From Macrostomum lignano (lineage: Eukaryota): a DNA stretch of 64,000 bases. The stretch covers positions 147,447 to 211,446 of the forward strand of contig NIVC01002447.1 of NCBI GenBank assembly GCA_002269645.1. The letters run 5' to 3'. Below are positions 36,318 to 58,100 of this stretch, one piece after another; the first letter of the stretch is position 1; every line of letters starts with the position of its first letter. A model generated the notes under the pieces. The model was not told the origin of the DNA, did no database searches, and saw only the letters and a program-made list of their open reading frames with translations. Position numbers and translations under genes: made by a program.

Positions 36318-39300
36318 CTAGCGTGGTCGTAGGTTGTAGCCATGTGGCTGGCTCACATCTGTCGTTTGAGTCTCCTCGTGCTTCGTCGCGATGTGGCGGT
36401 TCGTTGAACGCGTGCGATCAGCGTTGTCTAATGTCGGTAGAAACGTCGCTGTGTCAGTGTTGATCTTCTTTAGTCGATGAATGTGTACGTAGAACTGGTG
36501 CTGATGTGGATCTTGTACATTAGCCAGGCGTGCCGTTGTTGGTGACGTTAGTTGGACCACTCGATAGGGTCCTTTGTACTTCTGTGCATGTTTATGCGTC
36601 TGCTGTGGCGGGTAGTGTAGGTAGACGATGTCGCCGGCCGTCAGGGTTGTCGATCTCGCGTCGTTGCCGGTGGTCAGAGCCACCTGGTTGTCAATGTTGT
36701 GCTTGGCGATCTTCCATGCGAGGTGTAGTTGCGTGACGAATTTCTGAATGGAAGTCGGTACTTCCACGTACTGCGATGGTAGCAATTGCTGTGCGAGCAG
36801 ATTCGGCGGTTGGAAGTCTCGTCCAAACATTAGGAAGAATGGCGTATTGTCCGTTGATCGATGAATAGCGCTGTTGTAGGCCATTGTTACAGATTGCAGG
36901 TAGATGATCCAGTCTTCCGGCTGTTGGTGCGCGAAATGTGTAATCATCTCGTGCAGGTTGCGGTGAAACCGTTCAACCATGTTTGCCTTCGGATTGTAGG
37001 TCGATGTGTAGATCTGCGTAATGTTGAGAATCCTTACGACTTGCTGAAACAGTTGCGATGTAAACTGCGATCCGTTGTCCGATGTGAGGTTCTTTGGCGT
37101 GCCGTACTTGCAAATGATTTCGTTGAAGAAACTCATTGCCACTGTCTGAGCTGTGATGTCCGGTATCGGTATGGCGATAGCAAACTTCGAGAAGATATCC
37201 AAGGCGGTTAGAATGTAGGTGTAGGCGATGCCCTGGAGACAGCTCGGTGGCAGTGGTCCGGTGATGTCGATGCTTAGACAGTCCATTGTAGTCGACTTCG
37301 GAATGGACTGTAGCTGCGGTTTCTGTCGTCGTCCTGTCTTTGATGCAGCACATGAATGGCAGTTGTTGCAATACTGCTTGATGTCGCCGTACATAGTTGG
37401 CCAAAAGTAGTATTGTTCCACTCTCGCGATGGTCTTTGCGGCCGACAGGTGTCCAGCGAGTGGGTTGTCGTGCAGCTCGTTGAGAATTGCTTGCCGAAAC
37501 GAATATGGTACGTAGATCTTGGGTTTATTGTCGCTCATCCAGTAGAGCCGTGACTTATTGATTGTTAGGTGTTGTCGTTGCTTGCGTAGGAATTTTCGTT
37601 CCATGGGACTGAGTTTGATGTTCTTGTCGTCGTCTTTAACCGCTTGGTAGAAGTTGTCGCGCTCGGTTTCATCCACCAACTCCTTGATGTTAGGGATTGG
37701 ATGAATGGCGTTGACTTCATAGGCTCTTGACAGGGCGTCCGCGGCTTTGTTGGTAATTCCTGGTTTGTAGACGAGTTTGTAGTTGTAATCCTGGATCTTG
37801 AGTGTCATCCTGATGAGTCGGTTGTTGGTCTGTCCTTTTGTAGTTACGACGTAGGTCAATGGTGCATGATCCGTGCGTACTATCGTCTGTATTGGAGAAC
37901 CATAGATGTAGTAATGAAACTGTCGCAGGGCGAACAAGACTCCTAGTAGCTCTCGTTCCGTAGCTGACCACTTTGTCTCATTTGGTTTGAGTGCTCGACT
38001 GACGTAAGCAATAGGTCGTTCCTTCTTGTCCTCGGTTTCCTGTAGTAGGACTGCTCCGAGTCCCGTTCCTGAGGCGTCTGTCTCGATGATGAAGGGCTTG
38101 TCGAAGTCCGGATGCTGTAGCAGTGCGTCTGATGTCAGCTGTCGTTTGATTTCGTCGAAACTTTCCTGTTGTCTCTGTGTCCAGTTGTCTTGCTTCCATT
38201 TGTCGAACTTGAGCAGGTCGTACAGTGGCTTTGCTGTCTTTGCGAAGTTAGGTAAGAACTTCCTGAAGTATTGCGCAAGTCCAAGGAATGATTGGACCTT
38301 CGTTATACTGGTTGGCGTAGGAAACTTCTTCACCTTTTCCACGTTGTCTGGGTCCGGTGAGATTCCTTTGGCTGTCACCTGATGTCCCAGGTAACGCACG
38401 TTGTCTCGGAAGAATTTGCATTTAGTTGGTTGTAGCTTCAGACCTTGGCGTTGAATAGCGCGAGGGCCTTCTCCGTCGCTTCATAGAGTCGTTCGAAATC
38501 TCTCCGTAGGCCAAATGTCGTCGACATAGTGCAACAGGTTCGTGCATCCTGCTAGCATGTATGCTGTTAGTCGACTCATCGTTGCTGGGCTGTTGCTAGT
38601 CCCATCGGCGATCGATTGTACTCGTATACTTGTCCATTGTAGGTTTTGAAAGCCGTGTACTGTCGTGACTCTTTCTCGATTTCAATTTGCCAAAATCCAT
38701 GACGTAGGTCGAACACCGTGAACAATTTTGCCGTGTTGAGCTTTGCTAGTAGTTCGGAGATCTTCGGTAGGCTTTGCTGATCCGTCGGTATGTACTTGTT
38801 CAACAGTCTGAAGTCGCATACGAGTCGTCTTTCGTTTGTCTCCTTCTTCTGTACCAGTAGGCACGGTGAGGAGTAAGCCGAAATAGCTTTGCTGATGATG
38901 CCGTGCTTTAGCATTTTATCGATGATTTCGTCAAAGTGTTGTTGCAGATGCTTGGCGATCGGGTACGGCTTGCACTGAATTGGTTCCGTGTGCGGCAGAA
39001 GTTTGATTTCCTGTTTGATGTCCTTGGCTCGTCCGATGTCGTAATCATGATGGCAGAAGGCTTCGTTGTACTTCCACAACAGCTGTCGAACTTTCCTCTT
39101 TTGCTGTTCCGTAATCGGGCTGTCATCCAAATTGATCTTCTTTTGAAATTCTTCCTCTGTTAGTCGTGGAGTCGCTTGTTCAATCAGCATAACCGATGCT
39201 TGGGTGTTGAGATGACCGATGCACATTCCTTGTCGTAGATGAACCGTTTCTGTGTTCGGGTTGAAGATTTGTACTGGCAGTTGCTTATCCTTTGCAACCA

Positions 39301-39823
39301 GCACTAGTGCCGTAGGCATCATGATTTGATGTTTTGCCGTGACTCTCCTGTGTGGATCAAATATCATTGCTTCATCTGCCGCGCTGGTCGTTTTCGCTCT
39401 GACCCAGCATGCGCTTTCAGGCTGGATAATGACATCTTGCTGCAGAGTTACTTTCGGTAGTACTCGAATCTGGTTGATCAGCGGTTGCTCCACCGTGTCG
39501 ATCCTAAACGTTTGCTTGTTGAAGTCGAAGGTCAATGGTAGTTGAAGCTGCTTGAACGTGTCGATTCCAACGATGACGTCTTGGTTTGGTAGTCTGTCGA
39601 TGATGTACGTCGGGACCGTCAGCTGTTTATTAGCAATTTTCAAGTCGATATCTGCTTTTCCTAGGATGTTGAGTGAATGTCCTCCTGCTCCTGCAACTGC
39701 GATTGCTGCTGGTCGTACCGCGAGTCGTAGCTTGTTGCATAATTGTTGCGAGATGACTGTGATCGAGCTGCCTGAATCCAGTAGTGCTCGACATGGCAAG
39801 TTGTTGACAATGACCTGAGCCAT
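36318..39823 (-). CDS. pol: pol (protease-RT-RNase H-integrase), copy 1, broken by indels at ~38450-38600; frame open upstream to 40063
   Basis: ALLDSGS; LVCDFRLLN; FDLRHGFWQI; YVDD; ETDASG...ERELL...TDHAPL; HHCC; DITGP, SDNGSQF, MVERFHR; GPY. Confidence 0.95.
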
Positions 39824-40008
39824 TGCTTTGCCAATCTCGGCGTGTAGCGTACAGACGTAGTTTTCCGGCCATTTTGGCTCGTGCTGTTCTGCTTGATAGT
39901 TGGGTGGTTGTATCCTTGGTGCCGTTGGTGTTGTCGGAATCGATGGATATAGCCGCGTTGCTAGTGTCGGTTGCCCTTGAACCTCACAATGTGCAGTTTC
40001 TGTTAGTT

Positions 40009-42456
40009 CTAAACTGTTGTCGCTTCCGTTGTCGTTCTTTGCATTATGGCATTCACTGTCTTCTTAGCTCTTGGACAAGTTTGACTGAAGCACCGTACGA
40101 TCGATGAAATGATGAAGATTGCCGTGACAATCCACACAATGCAAGCACCGTAGAAGATGAATCCTTGATAGAGACTGCCTCTTCCATTGAGCAGCTCCCA
40201 GAAGCTATTTGTCCAAAATGATTTGATGGCGCTGTCCATTGAAACAAGGACGGGAAATCTTCCTGTCCCGGTTCCTTTGTCCTTTCTTGTGAACAGCTGG
40301 TGAATCATCTTGCGTTGGGTGATGAACGCTTGCAAGAAGTCGTTGATCGTCCATCCTGGTGTTATCTCGTCAAGTTGGATATCGGCGAATGGCGTATACT
40401 TCGTTCTGTTGAATCGGATTTTCAAATCCTCCATGTCGTAGTTTTCGTCGACGATTACTTCCGGTTCTGTGACGTTTGCTGTCGTTCCAGTTGTTTTGAT
40501 GACGTGTAGTGCATTGTCCAGTTGATAGTAGTTTGCTGCCGTGGTGCAAGGTCTCGGTATTGCGGTGCCAACGATGATGTTGTGTACCGTGTCCAAGAAT
40601 CCCTGAATTCGTTTTCCTTCGTAGAACGCTTCAATCCTTGGCTTGTCGTAGCAGGTTGTTGACGTGTTCGACGGCAAGATGTTAAAGTGCTGTATCGGCG
40701 TGCACTTGTATATCAACAGATGCTCGTATATTGGAACTGCCAAAACGTTCGTCATTCCGGTGATTTTACGAAAAGTCATCGTAGGGTTGACATAGTAGTT
40801 TTGTCTGGCATAATTTAAGTTGATTGCGTGCATTTTGCAAGTTAGCTGGACCAGTGTTCGATGCAAGTGGTTTAACTGGTTGTGTAGATTGTGATCCAAA
40901 GCCGTTATCTTTGCTGACAGTAGTCGGTTTGACACCAGTTTGGGACGTTCGATGTCACGTCGTCGTCTGTTCTGTTGTTCCTGCTGTTGATACGTTCCGT
41001 TGATGATCGCCAGAAAGGTTTGTTTGTCGTCATCTTTTACGTAGACTGGTATCTCTTGTTCCGAGATGAATAGTGTCTTGTCTGTATCCTTGCATTTCAG
41101 TTTTTGCTCGACTGGTTTCTTTTGAAACGTCAGTGCCAAGTCTCCTGACTTTGCCAAAAACGTATTTGACAGTAGTCCTCCTTCAACTGTGTGATACTTT
41201 TGAAGCTTGCAGTCAATTTCCGGCTCAACTTCCCACGCGAAGAAGTATTGTCGTGACTTAGATGGTTCTTCATATCGTGAGTCGCCTCTGCGTATAATTT
41301 GCCATCGATAGTCTTGATGATATGTTGGACTCAACGGTAAGCTGTATAGTTCCTCATTCCGCAGTATCGGCGTTGGACACCATCCTTTGCTGTATCGGCA
41401 GTCGCTTAATTGCAGTTGTAGCGACTCCATTTTTTCAAAAGGATTGTGATAGAATGGAATATTCCTGATTAGGTAACTGTTTCGTGTCATGTAGTTAGTC
41501 CATGCTTCCGAAAAGTGTACATATCGTCCGTTTGCTGAGTTCTTCGTTCGGTAAAGTTGTGCCTCCCCCACTTTCTCATCCGGTTCTAGCTGACCATCCT
41601 TTGAGAACAGTGTTTGGTTCCATTGTAGACATTCAGCGTGCGACACATGTAGTTCGTGTTGCCAAAATCGAATTCTGTTCCACTGTCCTCGCCAAACTTT
41701 TTCCACTAGGTGCTTGTCTCTAAAGCACACTATTCCGAGTTGTCGATGCTTCTTGATGTTAGCTTTGTAGAGATCAATTGTGATCTTCTTTGGCTTCGTC
41801 TGGTTTGTCTTGAAGTAGCTGCATTTGATGTCGGTTGGTATCTTGTAGATCATTGGTTGGATATGCGCATCCGTTGGACATATCATTGGTTTCTCCATTG
41901 CCGTTGCTTTGGCGACTACTGCTATCAGTAGTATCACGATGATCCAGAGCAGCCAGTTTTTCCACTTCTTGGACCTTGCCGTTGTCTTTGCTGGCATTGG
42001 CTGCGATTGCCATTCGTTATCCTCCATGTCCGCATCGTATTCTTTCGGTTGTTCCATTGGCTGATTCAGGCGGAAGGCTTCTGATTTGCTTTGCTCTTTG
42101 GTTATTTCAGTATCTTCGTCTGTAGCTTCTTCCGATGTTTCCGTTGTTTCACTCCATTGCGTTTGGTATCTTTTCTCTGCCTTGTAGTCGACCGTTTGAA
42201 TATAGGCTTCACCATTTCGTTTGTATCGGATCTCGTAGCATTCGTCGCTGTCGGAACTCGGCTTTTCTTTCATCTGTTCTTTTTCCATTTCTTCATCTTT
42301 CCATTGTATTTCGTAGCCTTGATCGCTGTCGGAACTTAGATTTTCCGCTCTCAGTTCTTCCTGCATTCCTTCTTCGGCTCGGTATCCATTCGTATCATCA
42401 TGCACTTCGCAGTCGTGATCGTTGCCGTAACTTATACATTCTTCTTCTTCCTTCAT
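40009..42456 (-). CDS. env: Acidic linker plus envelope glycoprotein (gB/class III-like), copy 1
   Basis: Signal KWKNWLLWIIVILLIAVVAKATA, Cys-rich ectodomain, RRRR furin site, C-x16-NP-x8-G-x17-C block, C-terminal TM and short tail. Confidence 0.85.
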   Translation of the reverse strand: MKEEEECISYGNDHDCEVHDDTNGYRAEEGMQEELRAENLSSDSDQGYEIQWKDEEMEKEQMKEKPSSDSDECYEIRYKRNGEAYIQTVDYKAEKRYQTQWSETTETSEEATDEDTEITKEQSKSEAFRLNQPMEQPKEYDADMEDNEWQSQPMPAKTTARSKKWKNWLLWIIVILLIAVVAKATAMEKPMICPTDAHIQPMIYKIPTDIKCSYFKTNQTKPKKITIDLYKANIKKHRQLGIVCFRDKHLVEKVWRGQWNRIRFWQHELHVSHAECLQWNQTLFSKDGQLEPDEKVGEAQLYRTKNSANGRYVHFSEAWTNYMTRNSYLIRNIPFYHNPFEKMESLQLQLSDCRYSKGWCPTPILRNEELYSLPLSPTYHQDYRWQIIRRGDSRYEEPSKSRQYFFAWEVEPEIDCKLQKYHTVEGGLLSNTFLAKSGDLALTFQKKPVEQKLKCKDTDKTLFISEQEIPVYVKDDDKQTFLAIINGTYQQQEQQNRRRRDIERPKLVSNRLLSAKITALDHNLHNQLNHLHRTLVQLTCKMHAINLNYARQNYYVNPTMTFRKITGMTNVLAVPIYEHLLIYKCTPIQHFNILPSNTSTTCYDKPRIEAFYEGKRIQGFLDTVHNIIVGTAIPRPCTTAANYYQLDNALHVIKTTGTTANVTEPEVIVDENYDMEDLKIRFNRTKYTPFADIQLDEITPGWTINDFLQAFITQRKMIHQLFTRKDKGTGTGRFPVLVSMDSAIKSFWTNSFWELLNGRGSLYQGFIFYGACIVWIVTAIFIISSIVRCFSQTCPRAKKTVNAIMQRTTTEATTV

Positions 42457-43808
42457 TTCTTTGTCTTTCGTGCTTGTTTTTCGTCATCCACTGTTGTCGA
42501 TTCATAGTTGTTTTCTCTGCCAGTCTTCATCTTTTCTTCGTTGCCGGTGTCGCTCTCCGTCTCCTCCCTTTTTTTGTGATTTACTTTCTTCCTGTTTTCT
42601 CTGCTGTCTCCGGTGGTCTCTTTTAATTTGATCATTTCGGTTTCATTCGCCTCTTCTGTGTTGTCAGTGTTGTCCTCGTGCGTCGTCTTCTTTTCGATCA
42701 AGCTGATGTCAAGTTCCGGGACTGTGAAGTCCATTTCCAAGTCGTCAATTGTGAACACTTGCTGTTCCTGCTGCTCATTTTCCGGTGTGTACGTGATGGC
42801 ATTCGCGTATCGTGGCATTGCTTGCGTTGGCTGTCTTTGTGCGTACCTGGCATTGCGTGGCCTGTAGCCATTATTTCTGAAGCGGCCTTCGTTTCCGAAG
42901 CGGCCATCATTTCCGGAGCGGTCATTATTTCCGAAGCGTCTATCATTTCCGACGCGTCTTATGCTTTGTTGTTGGCGATTTTGATATTGCTGCCATGGTT
43001 TCTGCGGCTTCTGATTGTTGAATATCTGTCGCGGCTTGTCGTATCTTGTTGACCAATGAGGACAATTAATCTGATAATGTCCTTCTTGTCCGCAGTAGTA
43101 ACATCTGGCTGAGGCTTGTTCATTTCGTCTTTTTTGTTCGGCGATAGCAGCTGTCTGGTGCTGCATTAACTTGTTTAGTTGCTGCGTCAGTTTCTGCACT
43201 TCATTGTTGCCTGTCGTCATTAATGGGGCACTGGCTTCCCACTGCATTCCGCACCGCAAAAGGTCTTCTTCGGTTTCGATATTTTCACGCAAAAGTCTAT
43301 CCCGAAGTGACGGCTGTGCGTTGTTTATTACGTGCAGGATGAGGTTTTGTTCGCGATCCATCAATCGTTGTCTTTCTCTGGCGGCCAATTCTGCCGCTCC
43401 CAGTGGCGGTTGGTCCGCAGCTTGCAGCGGTGGCTGATGCAGTGCCTTAATTATCTGGCGGATATCGTCCACAAAGGCGAGGAAGGATTCTGTTGCTTGC
43501 ATCCTTCTGTTATGCAACTTGTGCAGCAGCACTGATCTGTTTGTGCCGCAACGGTTGAAATGCGCGCGCAGTTGAATGATTAGTGCTGGATAATTTTGCT
43601 GTGTTGCTGCATCCAGCTTGCCGTAAATTTCTCGCGCAGTACCTTGGAGAAGAGGTGGCAGCAGCTGTGCCTTCTCTGGATTTTGTAGGTTGTATTCCCT
43701 ACATACCAGGTCAAAGTGGTCGACAAATGTGTTAAAATCTTTCTCCATCGAGAAGGTACCGACCGTTTCTTTGATGTCTCTGTGTACCGTTGGATTGCGC
43801 CGCGCCAT
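42453..43808 (-). CDS. gag: gag, copy 1 (separated from env by a 1-nt difference in an A-run relative to copy 2)
   Basis: Capsid-like N-terminus (F..F...F...LL.G.A...Y..L...Y..L...L...F) and CYYCGQEGHYQINC zinc knuckle. Confidence 0.9.
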   Translation of the reverse strand: MARRNPTVHRDIKETVGTFSMEKDFNTFVDHFDLVCREYNLQNPEKAQLLPPLLQGTAREIYGKLDAATQQNYPALIIQLRAHFNRCGTNRSVLLHKLHNRRMQATESFLAFVDDIRQIIKALHQPPLQAADQPPLGAAELAARERQRLMDREQNLILHVINNAQPSLRDRLLRENIETEEDLLRCGMQWEASAPLMTTGNNEVQKLTQQLNKLMQHQTAAIAEQKRRNEQASARCYYCGQEGHYQINCPHWSTRYDKPRQIFNNQKPQKPWQQYQNRQQQSIRRVGNDRRFGNNDRSGNDGRFGNEGRFRNNGYRPRNARYAQRQPTQAMPRYANAITYTPENEQQEQQVFTIDDLEMDFTVPELDISLIEKKTTHEDNTDNTEEANETEMIKLKETTGDSRENRKKVNHKKREETESDTGNEEKMKTGRENNYESTTVDDEKQARKTKK

Positions 43809-44496
43809 GTTGTTGATAGGATAGAACGGTAGTTCAAGATCTGGATCGATTTGTAACGGATCGTCCAGTGTGGTGTTTGCCTCGGAATAAACCTCGACTG
43901 TAACGAATTGTCTTGTGGTGTCGATTTGTTATTCGCTGGCCTCGGATGCGGTGTGGCTTGCTGCCACTGGTTGTCCTCAAATGAACTTGTTCTGTTCGCT
44001 TGCTGATTTCGCACTTATGCGGCGTCCCGCAAAGTGTATCTTCAAGTTGAAGTGGGCTTTGTCTTCTTGTTTTGCAAAGTCTTTTTCTCTTCTTTGACTC
44101 TCTCTCTTTTGTCAATTAACTCCGCTCTCCACGAAGTTTCAATTAATTTCGGTTTTGTTTTTGTGCCGGCAAAATGTTTCAGTTATTTTTTGTTTGTTTT
44201 GCGTCGACGATTCTTTTATTTTCGGTTTGTTTTCAGTGTACCGATGAATTTAATTTCGGTTTTATTTTAACTCACACTTGCTCGAGCTCGTTAAAACAAA
44301 ATTTAACACGCGTGCTCAAACTGTACTCAAATTTGACAGGTGCTCAAACCTGTACACCAAAATTTACTCGAGTTTCAAAACGTAACGGACTTAAAAAGTG
44401 TTAACTCTAACACGTGCGCGCAAAATTAATGAAGTCGCTCTGTCGTCACTTTACAATAGCTTGATCAGGGCTATTGCTCAAAGTTTGAGTAGTGCC

Positions 44497-44514
44497 GAGA
44501 GGGCGAGATCACCA
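44497..44514 (-). promoter_or_regulatory. Primer binding site TGGTGATCTCGCCCTCTC; identical at 54228-54245
   Basis: TGG starts 2 nt after the LTR end on the minus strand; tRNA identity not assigned. Confidence 0.75.
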
Positions 44515-44516
44515 AT

Positions 44517-45372
44517 TGATGTGTTCCTTATTACCCGACTTTCGATAATCAAGGAACAATCACTTCTAGCTCAGCAGCTAGGCAACCCAGTAAGTCAACA
44601 GAAGGTATTCAATTACCTTGAGTCCTTTGGAGATCTCTCGGAGTAGTTCTCGATTGTCTTCAGTTGCTCTCGTATAGTCACTTCTGACTTTCGTTTGTAG
44701 AGCGGGTCCGATTCTTCTTTCTTCTTCAAATAGTTCCGGCCGGATTCTGTCGCTCGGACCAATGGGAAGCTTCCGAATTAACAGTGGGATCCCTGCGCCA
44801 AACTGCGGTCTAAATTAAGCCTCCTTCTTCTAGCAGTGCCTCTATGCACTCTAGGTATAGCTCCGGAAACCACTGATAGTCCTCTAAGATCTATCAGGGG
44901 CAGTCCTTCTGGAGACTGCAACCAATGGAGTCTAAACAGACTCAAGAGTCTCAACAGACTCAAATAGACTCAAGTCTCAATAGACTTGAGCGAGACGTCT
45001 CTAACACAACGGCGCAAATAAGGAAGGCTTACCGCAACAACTCGACCGAGTCTCGATTGACTTGGTATATCAGGAAGTCCTCCTAAGGCTTCCTCTTCGG
45101 AGCGCTCCTCTTCCGTGGGGAGAATGGCTCCGGTACCGCTTCAGATCGCTTGTATTTATAGACAAGTTTTTGATCCAAAATAGTATCATGACAATTCACG
45201 TGTTGCGCTAAAAGGGGAAAATGGCTCATGGCGTATTATTCTGGTAACATCTTTTTCTGGTAGCGTGATTCATTCAAAGCTTAGGCGCACATGCGTGTAC
45301 TTACTTACTTATAGTAGTATTATACGATTATCTTCTTTTTTCCTTTTTTAACGGGAGGTAGAACACTCTACA
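44517..45372 (-). repeat. LTR2 (shared middle LTR, 856 bp)
   Basis: Preceded by the PPT of copy 2 and followed by the PBS of copy 1 on the minus strand. Confidence 0.95.
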
Positions 45373-45552
45373 AAATCTCCCTTTTTTACGAAAAAACTCG
45401 TCCCGAGTTTTAACAATAAAATTCTGTGGTGATCAGTTAATATAGGAAATAAACAATTGATTTTGTGCGCGTCTAGTGAAGCGAGGGTTTGGTCAAAACT
45501 CTAAAAACTTTTCAGTACATATTGCGGTCAAAACTCGAATATCGCGTAGACA

Positions 45553-45927
45553 TCAAGTGGCATCAGGTTTGATCCGACACCACTTTCGAAACGTGCAGTC
45601 TCGCGGCATACTATTACATAAGGGGCATCCTATAACGCCCCTACTAGCGGTTTGCTTCAAACAGTGCATGCAAATAAAATGTTGGTGGTTACAATATTGA
45701 AACGTGCGCCAAGAATAACAATAGGCACATTGTCGCAAACTATCTCTACAGAGGGGACAATTCTGCCATGGCTGAATATAATGTGAATCGCTTAAACATT
45801 GTCCGCAAACTTTATGTTCGTTGATGCAAATAGTCGGTGGCTTGACAGCCAAGTCATCAGTTAAACATATCGGGCAGTCATATAGCTGCTGAGGCTGGGG
45901 CGCCTGTTTTGACAGTGCGTTGCCCAT
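45553..45927 (-). CDS. Accessory myristoylated tandem-RING protein, copy 2
   Basis: Same translation as copy 1. Confidence 0.85.
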   Translation of the reverse strand: MGNALSKQAPQPQQLYDCPICLTDDLAVKPPTICINEHKVCGQCLSDSHYIQPWQNCPLCRDSLRQCAYCYSWRTFQYCNHQHFICMHCLKQTASRGVIGCPLCNSMPRDCTFRKWCRIKPDAT

Positions 45928-46047
45928 AATTGTCGTCAATTTGTCGCTGTCTTTGTGTCGCTCGGATTAGTCGCCTTTTACGACAAGCTTGCGAAGCTGT
46001 AGTGCTATTCTTTATCCCGGTCACTACACGGGGTTGTTCTCTAAACT

Positions 46048-49000
46048 CTAGCGTGGTCGTAGGTTGTAGCCATGTGGCTGGCTCACATCTGTCGTTTGAG
46101 TCTCCTCGTGCTTCGTCGCGATGTGGCGGTTCGTTGAACGCGTGCGATCAGCGTTGTCTAATGTCGGTAGAAACGTCGCTGTGTCAGTGTTGATCTTCTT
46201 TAGTCGATGAATGTGCACGTAGAATGATGCTGATGTGGATCTTGTACATTAGCCAGGCGTGCCGTTGTTGGTGACGTTAGTTGGACCACTCGATAGGGTC
46301 CTTTATACTTCTGTGCATGTTTATGCGTCTGCTGCGGCGGGTAGTGTAGGTAAACGATGTCGCCGGCCGTCAGGGTTGTCGATCTCGCGTCGTTGCCGGT
46401 GGTCAGAGCCACCTGGTTGTCAATGTTGTGCTTGGCGATCTTCCATGCGAGGTGTAGTTGCGTGACGAATTTCTGAATGGAAGTCGGTACTTCCACGTAC
46501 TGCGATGGTAGCAATTGCTGTGCGAGCAGATTCGGCGGTTGGAAGTCTCGTCCAAACATTAGGAAGAATGGCGTATTGTCCGTTGATCGATGAATAGCGC
46601 TGTTGTAGGCCATTGTTACAGATTGCAGGTAGATGATCCAGTCTTCCGGCTGTTGGTGCGCGAAATGTGTAATCATCTCGTGCAGGTTGCGGTGAAACCG
46701 TTCAACCATGTTTGCCTTCGGATTGTAGGTCGATGTGTAGATCTGCGTAATGTTGAGAATCCTTACGACTTGCTGAAACAGTTGCGATGTAAACTGCGAT
46801 CCGTTGTCCGATGTGAGGTTCTTTGGCGTGCCGTACTTGCAAATGATTTCGTTGAAGAAACTCATTGCCACTGTCTGAGCTGTGATGTCCGGTATCGGTA
46901 TGGCGATAGCAAACTTCGAGAAGATATCCAAGGCGGTTAGAATGTAGGTGTAGGCGATGCCCTGGAGACAGCTCGGTGGCAGTGGTCCGGTGATGTCGAT
47001 GCTTAGACAGTCCATTGTAGTCGACTTCGGAATGGACTGTAGCTGCGGTTTCTGTCGTCGTCCTGTCTTTGATGCAGCACATGAATGGCAGTTGTTGCAA
47101 TACTGCTTGATGTCGCCGTACATAGTTGGCCAAAAGTAGTATTGTTCCACTCTCGCGATGGTCTTTGCGGCCGACAGGTGTCCAGCGAGTGGGTTGTCGT
47201 GCAGCTCGTTGAGAATTGCTTGCCGAAACGAATATGGTACGTAGATCTTGGGTTTATTGTCGCTCATCCAGTAGAGCCGTGACTTATTGATTGTTAGGTG
47301 TTGTCGTTGCTTGCGTAGGAATTTCGTTCCATGGGGCTAAGTTTGATGTTCTTGTCGTCGTCTTTAACCGCTTGGTAGAAGTTGTCGCGCTCGGTTTCAT
47401 CCACCAACTCCTTGATGTTAGGGATTGGATGAATGGCGTTGACTTCATAGGCTCTTGACAGGGCGTCCGCGGCTTTGTTGGTAATTCCTGGTTTGTAGAC
47501 GAGTTTGTAGTTGTAATCCTGGATCTTGAGTGTCATCCTGATGAGTCGGTTGTTGGTCTGTCCTTTTGTAGTTACGACGTAGGTCAATGGTGCATGATCC
47601 GTGCGTACTATCGTCTGTATTGGAGAACCATAGATGTAGTAATGAAACTGTCGCAGGGCGAACAAGACTCCTAGTAGCTCTCGTTCCGTAGCTGACCACT
47701 TTGTCTCATTTGGTTTGAGTGCTCGACTGACGTAAGCAATAGGTCGTTCCTTCTTGTCCTCGGTTTCCTGTAGTAGGACTGCTCCGAGTCCCGTTCCTGA
47801 GGCGTCTGTCTCGATGATGAAGGCTTGTCGAAGTCCGGATGCTGTAGCAGTGCGTCTGATGTCAGCTGTCGTTTGATTTCGTCGAAACTTTCCTGTTGTC
47901 TCTGTGTCCAGTTGTCTTGCTTCCATTTGTCGAACTTGAGCAGGTCGTACAGTGGCTTTGCTGTCTTTGCGAAGTTAGGTAAGAACTTCCTGAAGTATTG
48001 CGCAAGTCCAAGGAATGATTGGACCTTCGTTATACTGGTTGGCGTAGGAAACTTCTTCACCTTTTCCACGTTGTCTGGGTCCGGTGAGATTCCTTTGGCT
48101 GTCACCTGATGTCCCAGGTAACGCACGTTGTCTCGGAAGAATTTGCATTTAGTTGGTTGTAGCTTCAGACCTTGACGTTGTATAAGCGCGAGGGCCTTCT
48201 CCGTCGCTTCATAGAGTCGTTCGAAGTCTTCTCCGTGGCCAAGATGTCGTCAACATAGTGCAACAGGTTCGTGCATCCTGCAGCATGTATGCTGTTAGTC
48301 GGCTCATCGTTGCTGGGCTGTTGCTGAGTCCCATCGGCGATCGATTGTACTCGTATACTTGTCCATTGTAGGTTTTGAAAGCCGTGTACTGTCGTGACTC
48401 TTTCTCGATTTCAATTTGCCAAAATCCATGACGTAGGTCGAACACCGTGAACAATTTTGCCGTGTTGAGCTTTGCTAGTAGTTCGGAGATCTTCGGTAGG
48501 CTTTGCTGATCCGTCGGTATGTACTTGTTCAACAGTCTGAAGTCGCATACGAGTCGTCTTTCGTTTGTCTCCTTCTTCTGTACCAGTAGGCACGGTGAGG
48601 AGTAAGCCGAAATAGCTTTGCTGATGATGCCGTGCTTTAGCATTTTATCGATGATTTCGTCAAAGTGTTGTTGCAGATGCTTGGCGATCGGGTACGGCTT
48701 GCACTGAATTGGTTCCGTGTGCGGCAGAAGTTTGATTTCCTGTTTGATGTCCTTGGCTCGTCCGATGTCGTAATCATGATGGCAGAAGGCTTCGTTGTAC
48801 TTCCACAACAGCTGTCGAACTTTCCTCTTTTGCTGTTCCGTAATCGGGCTGTCATCCAAATTGATCTTCTTTTGAAATTCTTCCTCTGTTAGTCGTGGAG
48901 TCGCTTGTTCAATCAGCATAACCGATGCTTGGGTGTTGAGATGACCGATGCACATTCCTTGTCGTAGATGAACCGTTTCTGTGTTCGGGTTGAAGATTTG

Positions 49001-49552
49001 TACTGGCAGTTGCTTATCCTTTGCAACCAGCACTAGTGCCGTAGGCATCATGATTTGATGTTTTGCCGTGACTCTCCTGTGTGGATCAAATATCATTGCT
49101 TCATCTGCCGCGCTGGTCGTTTTCGCTCTGACCCAGCATGCGCTTTCAGGCTGGATAATGACATCTTGCTGCAGAGTTACTTTCGGTAGTACTCGAATCT
49201 GGTTGATCAGCGGTTGCTCCACCGTGTCGATCCTAAACGTTTGCTTGTTGAAGTCGAAGGTCAATGGTAGTTGAAGCTGCTTGAACGTGTCGATTCCAAC
49301 GATGACGTCTTGGTTTGGTAGTCTGTCGATGATGTACGTCGGGACCGTCAGCTGTTTATTAGCAATTTTCAAGTCGATATCTGCTTTTCCTAGGATGTTG
49401 AGTGAATGTCCTCCTGCTCCTGCAACTGCGATTGCTGCTGGTCGTACCGCGAGTCGTAGCTTGTTGCATAATTGTTGCGAGATGACTGTGATCGAGCTGC
49501 CTGAATCCAGTAGTGCTCGACATGGCAAGTTGTTGACAATGACCTGAGCCAT
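46048..49552 (-). CDS. pol: pol, copy 2, with single-base indels near 48285, 47825, 47320 and 46225; frame open upstream to 49792
   Basis: Same domains as copy 1; breaks lie at different positions from copy 1. Confidence 0.95.
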
Positions 49553-49737
49553 TGCTTTGCCAATCTCGGCGTGTAGCGTACAGACGTAGTTTTCCGGCCA
49601 TTTTGGCTCGTGCTGTTCTGCTTGATAGTTGGGTGGTTGTATCCTTGGTGCCGTTGGTGTTGTCGGAATCGATGGATATAGCCGCGTTGCTAGTGTCGGT
49701 TGCCCTTGAACCTCACAATGTGCAGTTTCTGTTAGTT

Positions 49738-52700
49738 CTAAACTGTTGTCGCTTCCGTTGTCGTTCTTTGCATTATGGCATTCACTGTCTTCTTAGCTCT
49801 TGGACAAGTTTGACTGAAGCACCGTACGATCGATGAAATGATGAAGATTGCCGTGACAATCCACACAATGCAAGCACCGTAGAAGATGAATCCTTGATAG
49901 AGACTGCCTCTTCCATTGAGCAGCTCCCAGAAGCTATTTGTCCAAAATGATTTGATGGCGCTGTCCATTGAAACAAGGACGGGAAATCTTCCTGTCCCGG
50001 TTCCTTTGTCCTTTCTTGTGAACAGCTGGTGAATCATCTTGCGTTGGGTGATGAACGCTTGCAAGAAGTCGTTGATCGTCCATCCTGGTGTTATCTCGTC
50101 AAGTTGGATATCGGCGAATGGCGTATACTTCGTTCTGTTGAATCGGATTTTCAAATCCTCCATGTCGTAGTTTTCGTCGACGATTACTTCCGGTTCTGTG
50201 ACGTTTGCTGTCGTTCCAGTTGTTTTGATGACGTGTAGTGCATTGTCCAGTTGATAGTAGTTTGCTGCCGTGGTGCAAGGTCTCGGTATTGCGGTGCCAA
50301 CGATGATGTTGTGTACCGTGTCCAAGAATCCCTGAATTCGTTTTCCTTCGTAGAACGCTTCAATCCTTGGCTTGTCGTAGCAGGTTGTTGACGTGTTCGA
50401 CGGCAAGATGTTAAAGTGCTGTATCGGCGTGCACTTGTATATTAACAGATGCTCGTATATTGGAACTGCCAAAACGTTCGTCATTCCGGTGATTTTACGA
50501 AAAGTCATCGTAGGGTTGACATAGTAGTTTTGTCTGGCATAATTTAAGTTGATTGCGTGCATTTTGCAAGTTAGCTGGACCAGTGTTCGATGCAAGTGGT
50601 TTAACTGGTTGTGTAGATTGTGATCCAAAGCCGTTATCTTTGCTGACAGTAGTCGGTTTGACACCAGTTTGGGACGTTCGATGTCACGTCGTCGTCTGTT
50701 CTGTTGTTCCTGCTGTTGATACGTTCCGTTGATGATCGCCAGAAAGGTTTGTTTGTCGTCATCTTTTACGTAGACTGGTATCTCTTGTTCCGAGATGAAT
50801 AGTGTCTTGTCTGTATCCTTGCATTTCAGTTTTTGCTCGACTGGTTTCTTTTGAAACGTCAGTGCCAAGTCTCCTGACTTTGCCAAAAACGTATTTGACA
50901 GTAGTCCTCCTTCAACTGTGTGATACTTTTGAAGCTTGCAGTCAATTTCCGGCTCAACTTCCCACGCGAAGAAGTATTGTCGTGACTTAGATGGTTCTTC
51001 ATATCGTGAGTCGCCTCTGCGTATAATTTGCCATCGATAGTCTTGATGATATGTTGGACTCAACGGTAAGCTGTATAGTTCCTCATTCCGCAGTATCGGC
51101 GTTGGACACCATCCTTTGCTGTATCGGCAGTCGCTTAATTGCAGTTGTAGCGACTCCATTTTTTCAAAAGGATTGTGATAGAATGGAATATTCCTGATTA
51201 GGTAACTGTTTCGTGTCATGTAGTTAGTCCATGCTTCCGAAAAGTGTACATATCGTCCGTTTGCTGAGTTCTTCGTTCGGTAAAGTTGTGCCTCCCCCAC
51301 TTTCTCATCCGGTTCTAGCTGACCATCCTTTGAGAACAGTGTTTGGTTCCATTGTAGACATTCAGCGTGCGACACATGTAGTTCGTGTTGCCAAAATCGA
51401 ATTCTGTTCCACTGTCCTCGCCAAACTTTTTCCACTAGGTGCTTGTCTCTAAAGCACACTATTCCGAGTTGTCGATGCTTCTTGATGTTAGCTTTGTAGA
51501 GATCAATTGTGATCTTCTTTGGCTTCGTCTGGTTTGTCTTGAAGTAGCTGCATTTGATGTCGGTTGGTATCTTGTAGATCATTGGTTGGATATGCGCATC
51601 CGTTGGACATATCATTGGTTTCTCCATTGCCGTTGCTTTGGCGACTACTGCTATCAGTAGTATCACGATGATCCAGAGCAGCCAGTTTTTCCACTTCTTG
51701 GACCTTGCCGTTGTCTTTGCTGGCATTGGCTGCGATTGCCATTCGTTATCCTCCATGTCCGCATCGTATTCTTTCGGTTGTTCCATTGGCTGATTCAGGC
51801 GGAAGGCTTCTGATTTGCTTTGCTCTTTGGTTATTTCAGTATCTTCGTCTGTAGCTTCTTCCGATGTTTCCGTTGTTTCACTCCATTGCGTTTGGTATCT
51901 TTTCTCTGCCTTGTAGTCGACCGTTTGAATATAGGCTTCACCATTTCGTTTGTATCGGATCTCGTAGCATTCGTCGCTGTCGGAACTCGGCTTTTCTTTC
52001 ATTTGTTCTTTTTCCATTTCTTCATCTTTCCATTGTATTTCGTAGCCTTGATCGCTGTCGGAACTTAGATTTTCCGCTCTCAGTTCTTCCTGCATTCCTT
52101 CTTCGGCTCGGTATCCATTCGTATCATCATGCACTTCGCAGTCGTGATCGTTGCCGTAACTTATACATTCTTCTTCTTCCTTCATTTCTTTGTCTTTCGT
52201 GCTTGTTTTTTCGTCATCCACTGTTGTCGATTCATAGTTGTTTTCTCTGCCAGTCTTCATCTTTTCTTCGTTGCCGGTGTCGCTCTCCGTCTCCTCCCTT
52301 TTTTTGTGATTTACTTTCTTCCTGTTTTCTCTGCTGTCTCCGGTGGTCTCTTTTAATTTGATCATTTCGGTTTCATTCGCCTCTTCTGTGTTGTCAGTGT
52401 TGTCCTCGTGCGTCGTCTTCTTTTCGATCAAGCTGATGTCAAGTTCCGGGACTGTGAAGTCCATTTCCAAGTCGTCAATTGTGAACACTTGCTGTTCCTG
52501 CTGCTCATTTTCCGGTGTGTACGTGATGGCATTCGCGTATCGTGGCATTGCTTGCGTTGGCTGTCTTTGTGCGTACCTGGCATTGCGTGGCCTGTAGCCA
52601 TTATTTCTGAAGCGGCCTTCGTTTCCGAAGCGGCCATCATTTCCGGAGCGGTCATTATTTCCGAAGCGTCTATCATTTCCGACGCGTCTTATGCTTTGTT

Positions 52701-53538
52701 GTTGGCGATTTTGATATTGCTGCCATGGTTTCTGCGGCTTCTGATTGTTGAATATCTGTCGCGGCTTGTCGTATCTTGTTGACCAATGAGGACAATTAAT
52801 CTGATAATGTCCTTCTTGTCCGCAGTAGTAACATCTGGCTGAGGCTTGTTCATTTCGTCTTTTTTGTTCGGCGATAGCAGCTGTCTGGTGCTGCATTAAC
52901 TTGTTTAGTTGCTGCGTCAGTTTCTGCACTTCATTGTTGCCTGTCGTCATTAATGGGGCACTGGCTTCCCACTGCATTCCGCACCGCAAAAGGTCTTCTT
53001 CGGTTTCGATATTTTCACGCAAAAGTCTATCCCGAAGTGACGGCTGTGCGTTGTTTATTACGTGCAGGATGAGGTTTTGTTCGCGATCCATCAATCGTTG
53101 TCTTTCTCTGGCGGCCAATTCTGCCGCTCCCAGTGGTGGTTGGTCCGCAGCTTGCAGCGGTGGCTGATGCAGTGCCTTAATTATCTGGCGGATATCGTCC
53201 ACAAAGGCGAGGAAGGATTCTGTTGCTTGCATCCTTCTGTTATGCAACTTGTGCAGCAGCACTGATCTGTTTGTGCCGCAACGGTTGAAATGCGCGCGCA
53301 GTTGAATGATTAGTGCTGGATAATTTTGCTGTGTTGCTGCATCCAGCTTGCCGTAAATTTCTCGCGCAGTACCTTGGAGAAGAGGTGGCAGCAGCTGTGC
53401 CTTCTCTGGATTTTGTAGGTTGTATTCCCTACATACCAGGTCAAAGTGGTCGACAAATGTGTTAAAATCTTTCTCCATCGAGAAGGTACCGACCGTTTCT
53501 TTGATGTCTCTGTGTACCGTTGGATTGCGCCGCGCCAT
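49738..53538 (-). CDS. Gag-Env polyprotein, 1266 aa (copy 2)
   Basis: Single ORF: capsid, CCHC, GNDxRF repeats, acidic linker, internal signal peptide, gB-like ectodomain, TM. Confidence 0.85.
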   Translation of the reverse strand: MARRNPTVHRDIKETVGTFSMEKDFNTFVDHFDLVCREYNLQNPEKAQLLPPLLQGTAREIYGKLDAATQQNYPALIIQLRAHFNRCGTNRSVLLHKLHNRRMQATESFLAFVDDIRQIIKALHQPPLQAADQPPLGAAELAARERQRLMDREQNLILHVINNAQPSLRDRLLRENIETEEDLLRCGMQWEASAPLMTTGNNEVQKLTQQLNKLMQHQTAAIAEQKRRNEQASARCYYCGQEGHYQINCPHWSTRYDKPRQIFNNQKPQKPWQQYQNRQQQSIRRVGNDRRFGNNDRSGNDGRFGNEGRFRNNGYRPRNARYAQRQPTQAMPRYANAITYTPENEQQEQQVFTIDDLEMDFTVPELDISLIEKKTTHEDNTDNTEEANETEMIKLKETTGDSRENRKKVNHKKREETESDTGNEEKMKTGRENNYESTTVDDEKTSTKDKEMKEEEECISYGNDHDCEVHDDTNGYRAEEGMQEELRAENLSSDSDQGYEIQWKDEEMEKEQMKEKPSSDSDECYEIRYKRNGEAYIQTVDYKAEKRYQTQWSETTETSEEATDEDTEITKEQSKSEAFRLNQPMEQPKEYDADMEDNEWQSQPMPAKTTARSKKWKNWLLWIIVILLIAVVAKATAMEKPMICPTDAHIQPMIYKIPTDIKCSYFKTNQTKPKKITIDLYKANIKKHRQLGIVCFRDKHLVEKVWRGQWNRIRFWQHELHVSHAECLQWNQTLFSKDGQLEPDEKVGEAQLYRTKNSANGRYVHFSEAWTNYMTRNSYLIRNIPFYHNPFEKMESLQLQLSDCRYSKGWCPTPILRNEELYSLPLSPTYHQDYRWQIIRRGDSRYEEPSKSRQYFFAWEVEPEIDCKLQKYHTVEGGLLSNTFLAKSGDLALTFQKKPVEQKLKCKDTDKTLFISEQEIPVYVKDDDKQTFLAIINGTYQQQEQQNRRRRDIERPKLVSNRLLSAKITALDHNLHNQLNHLHRTLVQLTCKMHAINLNYARQNYYVNPTMTFRKITGMTNVLAVPIYEHLLIYKCTPIQHFNILPSNTSTTCYDKPRIEAFYEGKRIQGFLDTVHNIIVGTAIPRPCTTAANYYQLDNALHVIKTTGTTANVTEPEVIVDENYDMEDLKIRFNRTKYTPFADIQLDEITPGWTINDFLQAFITQRKMIHQLFTRKDKGTGTGRFPVLVSMDSAIKSFWTNSFWELLNGRGSLYQGFIFYGACIVWIVTAIFIISSIVRCFSQTCPRAKKTVNAIMQRTTTEATTV

Positions 53539-54247
53539 GTTGTTGATAGGATAGAACGGTAGTTCAAGATCTGGATCGATTTGTAACGGATCGTCCAGTG
53601 TGGTGTTTGCCTCGGAATAAACCTCGACTGTAACGAATTGTCTTGTGGTGTCGATTTGTTATTCGCTGGCCTCGGATGCGGTGTGGCTTGCTGCCACTGG
53701 TTGTCCTCAAATGAACTTGTTCTGTTCGCTTGCTGATTTCGCACTTATGCGGCGTCCCGCAAAGTGTATCTTCAAGTTGAAGTGGGCTTTGTCTTCTTGT
53801 TTTGCAAAGTCTTTTTCTCTTCTTTGACTCTCTCTCTTTTGTCAATTAACTCCGCTCTCCACGAAGTTTCAATTAATTTCGGTTTTGTTTTTGTGCCGGC
53901 AAAATGTTTCAGTTATTTTTTGTTTGTTTTGCGTCGACGATTCTTTTATTTTCGGTTTGTTTTCAGTGTACCGATGAATTTAATTTCGGTTTTATTTTAA
54001 CTCACACTTGCTCGAGCTCGTTAAAACAAAATTTAACACGCGTGCTCAAACTGTACTCAAATTTGACAGGTGCTCAAACCTGTACACCAAAATTTTACTC
54101 GAGTTTCAAAACGTAACGGACTTAAAAAGTGTTAACTCTAACACGTGCGCGCAAAATTAATGAAGTCGCTCTGTCGTCACTTTACAATAGCTTGATCAGG
54201 GCTATTGCTCAAAGTTTGAGTAGTGCCGAGAGGGCGAGATCACCAAT

Positions 54248-55103
54248 TGATGTGTTCCTTATTACCCGACTTTCGATAATCAAGGAACAATCACTTCTAG
54301 CTCAGCAGCTAGGCAACCCAGTAAGTCAACAGAAGGTATTCAATTACCTTGAGTCCTTTGGAGATCTCTCGGAGTAGTTCTCGATTGTCTTCAGTTGCTC
54401 TCGTATAGTCACTTCTGACTTTCGTTTGTAGAGCGGGTCCGATTCTTCTTTCTTCTTCAAATAGTTCCGGCCGGATTCTGTCGCTCGGACCAATGGGAAG
54501 CTTCCGAATTAACAGTGGGATCCCTGCGCCAAACTGCGGTCTAAATTAAGCCTCCTTCTTCTAGCAGTGCCTCTATGCACTCTAGGTATAGCTCCGGAAA
54601 CCACTGATAGTCCTCTAAGATCTATCAGGGGCAGTCCTTCTGTAGACTGCAACCAATGGAGTCTAAACAGACTCAAGAGTCTCAACAGACTCAAATAGAC
54701 TCAAGTCTCAATAGACTTGAGCGAGACGTCTCTAACACAACGGCGCAAATAAGGAAGGCTTACCGCAACAACTCGACCGAGTCTCGATTGACTTGGTATA
54801 TCAGGAAGTCCTCCTAAGGCTTCCTCTTCGGAGCGCTCCTCTTCCGTGGGGAGAATGGCTCCGGTACCGCTTCAGATCGCTTGTATTTATAGACAAGTTT
54901 TTGATCCAAAATAGTATCATGACAATTCACGTGTTGCGCTAAAAGGGGAAAATGGCTCATGGCGTATTATTCTGGTAACATCTTTTTCTGGTAGCGTGAT
55001 TCATTCAAAGCTTAGGCGCACATGCGTGTACTTACTTACTTATAGTAGTATTATACGATTATCTTCTTTTTTCCTTTTTTAACGGGAGGTAGAACACTCT
55101 ACA
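54248..55103 (-). repeat. LTR3 (5' LTR, 856 bp)
   Basis: Essentially identical to LTR2. Confidence 0.95.
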
Positions 55104-55155
55104 AGGGGTAACAGAAGAAAATGGATTTACGAAAAAATTATTTTTACACTCTTAG

Positions 55156-58100
55156 GGGACTTTGATAAGGTCGACGGCAGCAAGATCTGGGACAATGCCG
55201 CTGAGATAGCGCTGAAGCGGTTGAACATCCCTCCAGGCGTGTTCAAACCTGAGAACTGCTCAATCGTCACTTCGGCCGCGGTGTCAAGAAAGAACTGTCC
55301 GCATTTCACTGTGCCTCCGCATCTTCCTGAGGGCGCCAAGTGCAGAATTAGCGACGACTGTCTGGAAATGGATTGCTGTGTCGACCTGCAGCTGCTATCG
55401 TTTAAAAAGCAATTCCACGTCTGGCTCGAGATCGACCCGTGCGGTCTGCGGTTCGAAACTGGCTTTGAAAACTGGAAGTTCAACATTAGTCTTCTTAATC
55501 ATATCGGTGAGACTATTCATATGACGATTTGCGACAGAACTGTGTGCTCAAAAAGGCTTAAACCAACTGTCTAAAAATTCATAGGTCGCAGCTACAAGGA
55601 GAAGATTGGCAACTCGCTGTCAGTCAATTTCGAATATGGCCGAGCATCCGACGGTCAGCTGTTGGCCACGCTGTCAGTAGAGTTTTGCTACGACTTCCAG
55701 TGTACATTCGACATCAAGCTGCTTGATATGGCAGTGATACCCATTCCAGCCTGCGGAGCATCAGGACTCGTGTGGCCTGAATGTGAGCCGTATTGTAGTT
55801 CCTTTGTACTTTGAAGCTATTACTTATCAGGAATTTGATAATAACTGAATTTGTAATTTCAGTAAACGCGGCCGGTCATGCCAAATCTGTCGAAGAGGCC
55901 ACAAGAGGTCTTATCGCTAACCGGCTGAAGCTGTCCCCGAACTTCCTGGCGGATCGTCAATGCGTAGTGAACGAAATTTTGAGCAGAAATGTGACTTGCT
56001 CACACGCCAATGTGCCTGCCTTGCCAGAATTCACAACTTGTGGCCTGGCACCCGGCTGCCTAGGAGTTGAGTGCTGCCAGCTAGTGGACTACAAGCTGCT
56101 CAATAGGAGCTTCTCCACCTGGATTCAGTTCGATCCTTGTACCTACACGTATTCAGTTGGCTTTGAGCGCTGGTATCTGAATGGCACTCTCATGAATTTT
56201 ACTGGATGGAATGAAGAGCAGCAGCAGAAGATCGGCGACCAGCTCACCCTGCGATTCAAGGTGGCAAAAGCGCAACAACTGCAAAGCTTCATAGTAGGCA
56301 TGTCGCTTGAGTACTGCGATGCCAACGATTGCAATCGAGTAGCGAATATTCTTCACGATCAGGAGTTCCCGGTTCCCGTCTGTTTGGACGGCTCCAGGCT
56401 TGAATGGTCGAATGTTGACCGCGGAGTCAGCGGCATCGTGGCGACTCAGCTCGGAATGGACATCGGCCTGCTTAGAGAGCGACAGTGCCAGAAGTCCGAC
56501 CTTGGACAAGCCAGTGTCCAGTGCCCGCACGTGTCTGCGCCCGACTCGCGTGAGGTCAGCTGCTCTGCCATCGGCATTTGCACCGGCCTTGACTGCTGCT
56601 CACTGGTCAACTTGAAGGTCGCCGAAGTGGCATTTAAAACTTCTATCGATGTGAACCCGTGCACGTACGAACTGGCGCTTACGTTTGAGAAGTGGTCCTT
56701 CAATCGATCTTTGCTGGGATTCGAATGGGCCAGAAAGACAGAGCACTCCATCGGGGAGAATGTAAAACTGGTGTACACACTCGGCCTAGCCAATGAGATG
56801 AAGGACCTCATTTTTAATCTGGAGCTTTGGGTTTGCCCGCTCAAAACAGCTTGCTATAGTGTTCCAGTGTTGACAGACTTGCACCTGTCCATTACGGCCT
56901 GCATTAACGGAACGTTGATCTGGCCTGGAGGTAAAAAATTAATTAGAGTCTGACTGGTTTCTGGCTTCATGTAATAAAATTTTATGCATACTAATCTGAA
57001 ATTTTAGTACCGTCGCCCAACCAAGTCGACACGGTGAGCGGTTTGATAGTAAACCGGCTGAAAATCGAACCGGCCACTCTCATGGACAGGCAGTGCTACA
57101 ACTCCTCTCTCGTGATTCCCGATAAGTCACAGTGCCCGTTTGGAGACAAAGTCAATGTTCAGGCTGCAGATCCCAGATCAATGTGCGTCCTGCAGTCAAG
57201 CTGTGTCGGAGCTGTGTGCTGCCAGAACATGGACCTCATGGTAGTGTCCCGATCGTTCCATATCAGCGTTTTTATCGACGTTTGCCAGTTTGAATTTACA
57301 ATCACCTTTGAAAAGTGGCACGTCACCGCTTCGTTTCTAACTCTAGAGTTCGGTAAGGTTATCTTTGTTTGTGTCAAGTAACTGAATTGTGAATTATTTA
57401 AACAAAAAATACTTTGAATTATTACCAATGCAGACAAACCGCACGAAGTCGCCGTGTCTCCAACTTTGAAGCTGTACTACGAGGTAAACAGCCACTTCTC
57501 CGGCAGCGGCGCCCTGATATCTGCCGGCTACATTCTGTGTCTCGAAGAAGGCGAAGCTTGCCAAGCACCAATGCCAGTAATGCAGCCTACTTTCTTCTAC
57601 CTACCGATCTGCGACAGTGGCAAACTCATCTGGCCTCCTGTGGACAATCCGGACGACCTTAACAAGGTGCCGAGCACTCTGATCCTTAATAGACTGGGAC
57701 TTCAGTTCGATGACATGTACACCCAGCAGTGCGAGGTGGACTATCTGCAAAAATCTATTTGGGAATCTTGGTGTCGAGATCACGTCAGAAATGAGACGGA
57801 CACCGCTGATCTGCGCTGCACACCAACCAAGTCTTGTACAGGCATGGAGTGCTGCTACACAATAGATCTTAAGATAACAAAGCATAGCTTCAAGCTTTGG
57901 ATGTTCGTTGAGCCGTGTACTCTGCAACTGTCGCTGGGATTCGAGCGGTGGAGCATGAACAAGACGCTGTTGGGATACAATTTCGAGACTAAGCACACAG
58001 AACAAGTAGGCAGAGCAGTGCAGTTGGAGTATCAACTGCAGCTTGCCTCCGACTACAAAGAGTTTGTTATGTCCTTGGATTTGCTGATCGGTGTAGGAAG

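Follow-up and report, generated by a model that had tools for sequence, protein, structure and literature searches.

Positions 49738-51627 (minus strand) of a 64,000-nt stretch of Macrostomum lignano DNA (hereafter the window) encode an envelope-like protein. A preliminary description took it for a class III fusogen of the herpesvirus gB / chuvirus G type, acquired by an independent capture. The locus raises the question of what this protein is, what kind of element carries it and where it came from. Our analysis indicated, at a probability of roughly 0.88, that these positions are env, sharing a frame with gag, in a Ty3/gypsy element of gag-env-pol order (likely Mlig_errantivirus_2), and that they encode a predicted gB-type class III fusogen that would serve particle-cell fusion.

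All of the features on which the class III proposal was built (furin-type site, helix, cysteine-NP motif, aromatic membrane-proximal segment and transmembrane segment, TM) were found where it had placed them. The Env features are as follows:

49900-51627 (minus): Env ectodomain and membrane-proximal region, predicted gB-type class III fold, 6 N-glycosylation sequons
51409-51423 (minus): putative fusion loop 1 (WRGQW), forming the tip of one long beta hairpin (DSSP E51-70/E73-83)
51220-51243 (minus): putative fusion loop 2, FSEAWTNY, ahead of strand E134-151
50686-50697 (minus): RRRR, a furin-type site; the loop that holds it (model residues 304-321) is of low confidence and precedes the central helix
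50518-50658 (minus): central helix of 47 residues (H324-370 in the model, equivalent to gB domain III), followed by the NP motif
50649-50566 (minus): helix segment LSAKITALDHNLHNQLNHLHRTLVQLTC
50568-50431 (minus): C-x16-NP-x8-G-x17-C
49983-49918 (minus): aromatic membrane-proximal helix
49825-49893 (minus): C-terminal TM, Kyte-Doolittle 19-residue peak 2.43, followed by a 28-residue tail and a stop at 49740-49738

Two hydrophobic segments flank the ectodomain, which gives a type I topology as judged from hydropathy alone. When the env protein was shuffled 20,000 times, the strict C-x16-NP-x8-G-x17-C pattern arose once, a weak figure since the motif was written from env itself, and the looser C-x16-NP arose 775 times. 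Comparison with homologues is the fairer test: C-x16-[ND]PT was present in 28 of 52 independent homologues. WRGQW and FSEAWTNY both sit at hairpin tips in the model and, by analogy with gB, are putative fusion loops; the counterpart of the first in the homologue P0001 is the aromatic WFYSW.

The homologues came from an exhaustive search, which gave 52 proteins at E<=0.001; a word-index search found 1 match among 3306 candidates and, with a profile, 2 among 5142. When the single env sequence was searched against the PDB with phmmer, no gB was returned, just 4 chance matches at E 0.29. A profile of 38 sequences (the ectodomain and 37 of the 52 homologues, mostly shorter ones) gave 36 PDB matches at E<=10, all of which were herpesvirus gB, 16 of them at E<1e-6. 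The best match was EBV gB (E 7e-13); it took in the N-terminal cysteine strand and core helix as well as the NPT motif and domain IV. In this family profile the central helix and NPT motif of Env align with the core helix and NPT motif of EBV gB. Pfam PF24664 (Monjiviricetes_fusion) matched env at E 1.4e-5 with 23.7 bits, under the 27-bit cut-off; it was found in 16 of the 30 homologues scanned (30 of the 52) and was above the cut-off in 10 of these 30.

Structure comparison pointed the same way. The AlphaFold model (pLDDT 77.8, pTM 0.55) shows long hairpins and the 47-residue central helix, and its predicted ectodomain layout is gB-like, with a fusion domain, a PH-like domain, the central helix and a crown. 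The preliminary description had named a failure to superpose on class III folds as the refuting outcome; this outcome was not seen, and the model matched gB. All of the 32 PDB rows listed by Foldseek were gB (best E 3e-22); the superposition was moderate overall (TM 0.41-0.47, rmsd 12-18 A), which could be explained by hinge differences between the model and gB. With VIA-align, Z>=8 was reached by 5 chains among 48,161, every one a gB, the best being PRV gB domain IV (Z 11.5, rmsd 3.6 A, 163/175 residues), with lower scores for Chandipura G of the rhabdoviruses (6.6), Bourbon Gp (6.1) and GP64 (4.8). The BFVD matches listed were glycoproteins of rhabdo-like, nyami-, chu-, entomopox- and herpesviruses, with identities of 8-14%. 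The Atlas top score, 0.96, was to PF24664 clusters, with a recognition value of 1914, below the reliability mark of 2300. The assignment of Env to the gB / chuvirus-G type is backed by the profile search, the structure prediction and the three structure comparisons, and is well supported as a prediction.

An F-type env (class I, baculovirus/paramyxovirus-like) is very unlikely given the positive gB match. No F protein was among the structure matches listed by Foldseek, BFVD and VIA-align, and Pfam gave no Baculo_F match in this env. The homologue P0005 has a weak Baculo_F match in its TM region.

Env shares with herpesvirus gB (EBV, KSHV, HSV, HCMV) the predicted domain layout, the central helix with C-x16-NPT and the domain IV crown, and also the furin loop, the membrane-proximal region and the TM. 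It differs in being shorter (629 aa) and in being made within a Gag polyprotein, and the identity is 9-14%. No gene for a gH/gL/gD-like partner was found in the element.

The env region is not a free-standing gene. It is the C-terminal half, residues 678-1306, of a longer frame that also contains gag, and it is followed by pol:

49738-53658 (minus): single open gag-env frame with 1306 codons between stops; its likely initiating Met is at 53538
52792-53538 (minus): gag, a capsid-like region and a CCHC zinc knuckle (knuckle 52833-52792), recognised by PF00098 and P0001
51628-51684 (minus): internal hydrophobic segment, hydropathy peak 2.6, directly ahead of the ectodomain
46200-49792 (minus): pol (protease, RT, RNase H, integrase), in another frame, overlapping the env end by 55 nt and split into four ORFs in copy 1

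The start Met at 53538 was chosen because the homologue P0001 begins at the matching place. The gag region has 60% identity to the gag part of P0001. Its PF00098 match (E 5.8e-4) is just under the cut-off, and a weak DUF1759 match (E 0.0017) was also seen. Between Gag and the hydrophobic segment lies an acidic low-complexity spacer of about 270 residues (about 52500-51700, minus), whose sequence differs in P0001 and P0003. From its sequence, the hydrophobic segment is likely the signal that sends Env into the ER, with a presumed signal cleavage before Met 51627. A comparable hydrophobic segment stands ahead of env in P0001, P0011, P0026, P0044, P0047 and P0065.

The pol region matched PF13650 (E 2.5e-10), PF00078 (5e-16), PF17917 (1.7e-33), PF17921 (4.8e-21) and PF00665 (6e-15). 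The order protease-RT-RNase H-integrase, the gypsy-type RNase H and the integrase zinc finger (PF17917, PF17921, PF00665) are those of Ty3/gypsy pol. Between protease and RT, at about 49200-48930 (minus), there is a beta-rich segment with no Pfam match, which we presume to resemble the inactive dUTPase-like fold of some gypsy elements. An assignment to Bel/Pao was dropped, as no Bel/Pao-type RNase H family was among the Pfam matches at E<=1.

The whole element is a gag-env-pol Ty3/gypsy LTR retrotransposon on the minus strand, present in two tandem copies. Self-comparison of the window gave an array LTR-body-LTR-body-LTR running from 55103 to 34779 with a period of 9730-9731:

54248-55103 (minus): LTR-A, the 5' LTR, 856 bp, TG...CA
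54234-54245 (minus): primer-binding site (PBS), 2 nt past the end of LTR-A
45553-45927 (minus): 124-aa accessory ORF of copy 1, between pol and LTR, starting MGNALSK, with two RING-like Cys/His clusters; in copy 2 at 36197-35823 (minus)
45373-45388 (minus): polypurine tract, directly before LTR-B
44517-45372 (minus): LTR-B, the middle LTR, 856 bp, TG...CA, common to both copies
35643-44516 (minus): second element body, 26 differences over ~8,875 nt from the first copy
34779-35642 (minus): LTR-C, the last LTR, 864 bp, 92% identity to LTR-A and LTR-B

The TG...CA ends, the PBS and the polypurine tract expected of Ty3/gypsy (Metaviridae) LTRs are all present; the PBS lies 2 nt past both LTR-A and LTR-B, and a polypurine tract precedes LTR-B and LTR-C. 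LTR-A and LTR-B are identical in 855 of 856 columns, i.e. they differ at one site. The differences of LTR-C from both cluster in alignment columns 500-800, its 3' part. The gag-env frame is open in copy 1; in copy 2 it is broken near 42480, and pol is broken near 38500. No target-site duplication was found as a 4-6 bp match between the outer flanks. Since the last LTR is another sub-variant and there is no such duplication, the array has likely recombined; an assembly artefact is the alternative. The missing duplication lowers the case for a single clean insertion and leaves family membership untouched.

Several other observations were made in and around the array. The window has an N gap at 31689-31889 and minisatellite arrays at about 15600-27800 with periods of 8, 17, 21, 23, 24 and 34 nt. 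Adjoining the 5' LTR, exons at 55083-64000 (plus) belong to a large host gene that is rich in cysteine and contains repeated modules as well as Ig/FN3-like parts; Pfam gave no confident match for it. In contigs of public runs, joints that skip 50865-54248 and 46033-50909 suggest internally deleted, non-autonomous derivatives.

The family of the element has very likely been described already. The C-terminal half of env shares 98% identity with P0057 (ALD16272.1, Macrostomum lignano), and pol shares 98-100% with it; among the 10 proteins in the P0057 cluster, 9 are named M. lignano. In the accessible parts of the survey of Chary & Hayashi (eLife 2026, PMC13524379), all elements are classed as Ty3/gypsy by HMM, and the table has one Macrostomum element only, Mlig_errantivirus_2 (Platyhelminthes_Rhabditophora, Supplementary file 1 row 1445), with an env of type ENV_HSV, 16 copies, LTRs at 0-863 and 9727-10591 and a PBS at 865-877. 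The PBS of our element is identical to this PBS, which occurs once in the table. The two also agree in host, env type, the PBS offset of ~2 nt, LTR length, LTR spacing and multicopy state; the LTR is about 864 with a spacing of 9727 in the entry, against 856/864 and 9730-9731 here. As two of our three LTRs are 856 bp, our element is likely another copy or an LTR sub-variant, and it differs from the entry in forming a tandem array with broken pol. At the family level we are highly confident of the identity, which rests on PBS, LTR geometry and host. The sequence of Mlig_errantivirus_2 was not in the supplements of PMC13524379 that were searched, where the env alignment has just Schmidtea rows for flatworms. 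The element's env is not mentioned in the available portions of Zhou 2015 (PMC4604429) or of a paper on heat-induced LTRs (PMC12801592).

Our results do not support an independent capture of env. The gag and/or pol regions lie in the same protein, in the same gag-env-pol order, in 26 of the 52 env homologues. As far as the accessible text of PMC13524379 goes, gB-type env is as widespread as F-type env in animal Ty3/gypsy elements, gag-env-pol order occurs in flatworm, nematode and bryozoan elements, an ancient acquisition is argued for gB-type env, and env ectodomains flanked by two transmembrane segments are noted. The earlier statement that insect errantivirus env is of the F type is incomplete, as the same source describes env of the gB type in errantiviruses of Hymenoptera and of other insects. 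The gB-type env of gypsy elements and the gag-env-pol order are therefore already in print.

A recent capture specific to this lineage, from a chuvirus, nyamivirus or rhabdo-like virus, was also considered. The best BFVD matches listed, the G proteins of Beihai rhabdo-like virus 3 (E 2.7e-24) and Nyavirus midwayense (1.4e-23), are ahead of gB, and env stands on a long branch of the env tree, where it has no well-supported deep placement among the homologues. That tree was made with a quick method from 44 rows, none of them viral, and its long branches meet, so that it says nothing on origin; 10 short or split rows were left out (P0001, P0003, P0005, P0017, P0018, P0023, P0025, P0031, P0036, P0052). 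In the pol trees of PMC13524379, as far as available, gag-env-pol elements are not monophyletic. Against a recent capture, Env has 8-14% identity to every viral structure listed, but 59% to P0001 and about 19-29% to those retroelement envs that lie outside the family. The chuvirus and nyamivirus glycoproteins (PF24664) belong to the same fusogen superfamily, but at 8-14% identity no donor can be identified among them. We regard a recent capture as very improbable; repeated ancient captures are possible. The mosquito env Anakin (Dezordi et al. 2020, PMC7642597, seen in part) is of the same superfamily and is likewise retroelement-borne, in a Bel/Pao element, in contrast to the Ty3/gypsy pol found here. 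The homologue P0006 has a NADAR domain upstream of its gB-type env in the same protein.

The homologues also bear on how the three parts are translated. A gag region or CCHC knuckle lies upstream of env in the same protein in 21 of the 52, protease or RT lies downstream in 16, and 11 have both; env after pol was found in none of the 52 compared. Four deposited proteins of the element's family include the env tail, and all of them continue into pol. In P0049 (2627 aa, 8,281-nt contig) and P0050 (2991 aa, 9,424 nt), gag-env-pol is practically a single frame because nearly the whole contig is filled by it. These results suggest that Gag and Env, and probably Pol, form one membrane-threaded polyprotein; some of the Env-Pol read-through proteins may be products of gene modelling across breaks. 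A second M. lignano gag-env-pol family, P0003 (PAA86625.1 and its cluster), is one 2852-aa protein with 27-28% env identity and a Thr/Ser/Pro-rich mucin-like insert ahead of the furin site. Some nematode elements, attributed to Sacco et al. 2022, reportedly have a continuous gag-env-pro-pol ORF, a nyamivirus-like glycoprotein and small extra ORFs. These non-canonical nematode endogenous retroviruses (J Gen Virol, PMID 35550022), cited in the parts of PMC13524379 available, have env before pol as here, in nematode hosts.

Gag-Env and Pol could instead come from different frames, with Gag-Env abundant and Pol scarce, if a programmed frameshift or a separate mRNA were used. Retroviruses regulate Pol by control of this type. 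In both tandem copies env is closed by the same stop after its tail, with the 55-nt overlap with the pol frame, and one deposited protein, P0064, has the first pol Met as its N terminus. Yet the overlap contains no canonical slippery heptamer in either copy, and the four family proteins mentioned above read through the boundary. Two public contigs that span it each differ from the window by a gap, the place of which they do not show. The remaining pol breaks of copy 1 behave likewise: near 48.2, 47.8, 47.3 and 46.2 kb the window disagrees with public contigs of four runs, and the pol breaks are therefore copy-specific lesions or assembly errors. The stretch searched was present in 19 of 24 public runs, none of them on record as RNA, and such contigs cannot show transcripts or splicing. 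Expression from two frames is unlikely in our judgement, and the single polyprotein is the preferred reading.

With a single polyprotein, the element would work as follows. The full-length RNA would be translated from gag onward, and the internal signal would thread Env into the ER, where signal peptidase likely frees Env from Gag. The C-terminal TM would return the chain to the cytosol, so that the polyprotein would span the ER membrane two times, with Env on the lumenal side and both Gag and Pol on the cytosolic side. In intact family members the chain likely runs on into Pol and would be cut by the element's protease. Both copies in the window, their pol frames being broken, would depend on other copies. 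gB and rhabdovirus G are trimeric and insert two aromatic loops, then refold to fuse membranes. By analogy, Env would trimerise, be cut by furin and decorate budding particles, and would insert its own two aromatic loops and refold to fuse the particle with a cell. The element was found to have no gH/gL-like partner, and we therefore propose that Env would drive fusion alone, probably at low pH.

This scheme supposes that env is still used for entry. Were the element confined to intracellular transposition, Env would be a relic or a mere membrane anchor for assembly. The internal-deletion derivatives among the contigs, which lack gag and part of env, are consistent with this, and how gB-type errantiviruses enter cells is described as unknown in the accessible text of PMC13524379. 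On the other side, the 629-codon env is open and its protein is identical in both tandem copies, and the fusion-loop aromatics, the cysteines and the core motif are kept across a divergence from 59% to about 20% identity. Loss of the entry function is thus rather improbable, and a fusogen for particle-cell fusion is the better account of env.

The accessory ORF between pol and the LTR is identical in both tandem copies. Pfam RING matches were under the cut-off (zf-RING_2, E 0.002), and the sequence search found no homologue. Its MGNALSK start presumably fits an N-myristoylation motif. Of 6 variant sites, a small sample, 4 are synonymous and none changes Cys or His. Contigs in two runs diverge at 45967, and some family members therefore likely carry a different 3' region. 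Atlas neighbours were viral RING proteins (0.91) and arenavirus Z (0.88), which we take as a lead only; the single-sequence model (pLDDT 35.6) was unusable. For its product, a role as a membrane-bound ubiquitin ligase directed at host factors is more likely, and a Z-like matrix is the bolder idea. In its boldest form, one membrane-threaded Gag-Env-Pol polyprotein, processed in a flavivirus/alphavirus-like manner, would build an enveloped particle, with the double-RING protein as an arenavirus Z-like budding matrix. By analogy this can be imagined, and we think it quite improbable. If true, the element would have borrowed both its class III spike and its matrix, and would travel from cell to cell in a flatworm model that is open to transgenesis, so that its movement could be observed.

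Our literature search found no paper on a RING or myristoylation additional ORF in gypsy LTR retrotransposons, and the available part of Rodriguez 2017 (PMC5408684) has no RING ORF3. The words 'polyprotein', 'frameshift', 'fused' and 'RING' are absent from the main text of PMC13524379, whose figure supplements may show ORF structure. The single polyprotein layout and the 124-aa double-RING ORF are small additions in that they were not found in this main text.

As gB-type env of gypsy elements was already known, the value of this element is more practical than one of discovery. With an intact, multicopy env, it lends itself well to the question of whether membranes can be fused by a gB-like protein without gH/gL. 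M. lignano is described, in the sources as far as available, as amenable to transgenesis and RNAi, and the element would be useful for asking whether elements with a gB-type env move between stem cells and the germline.
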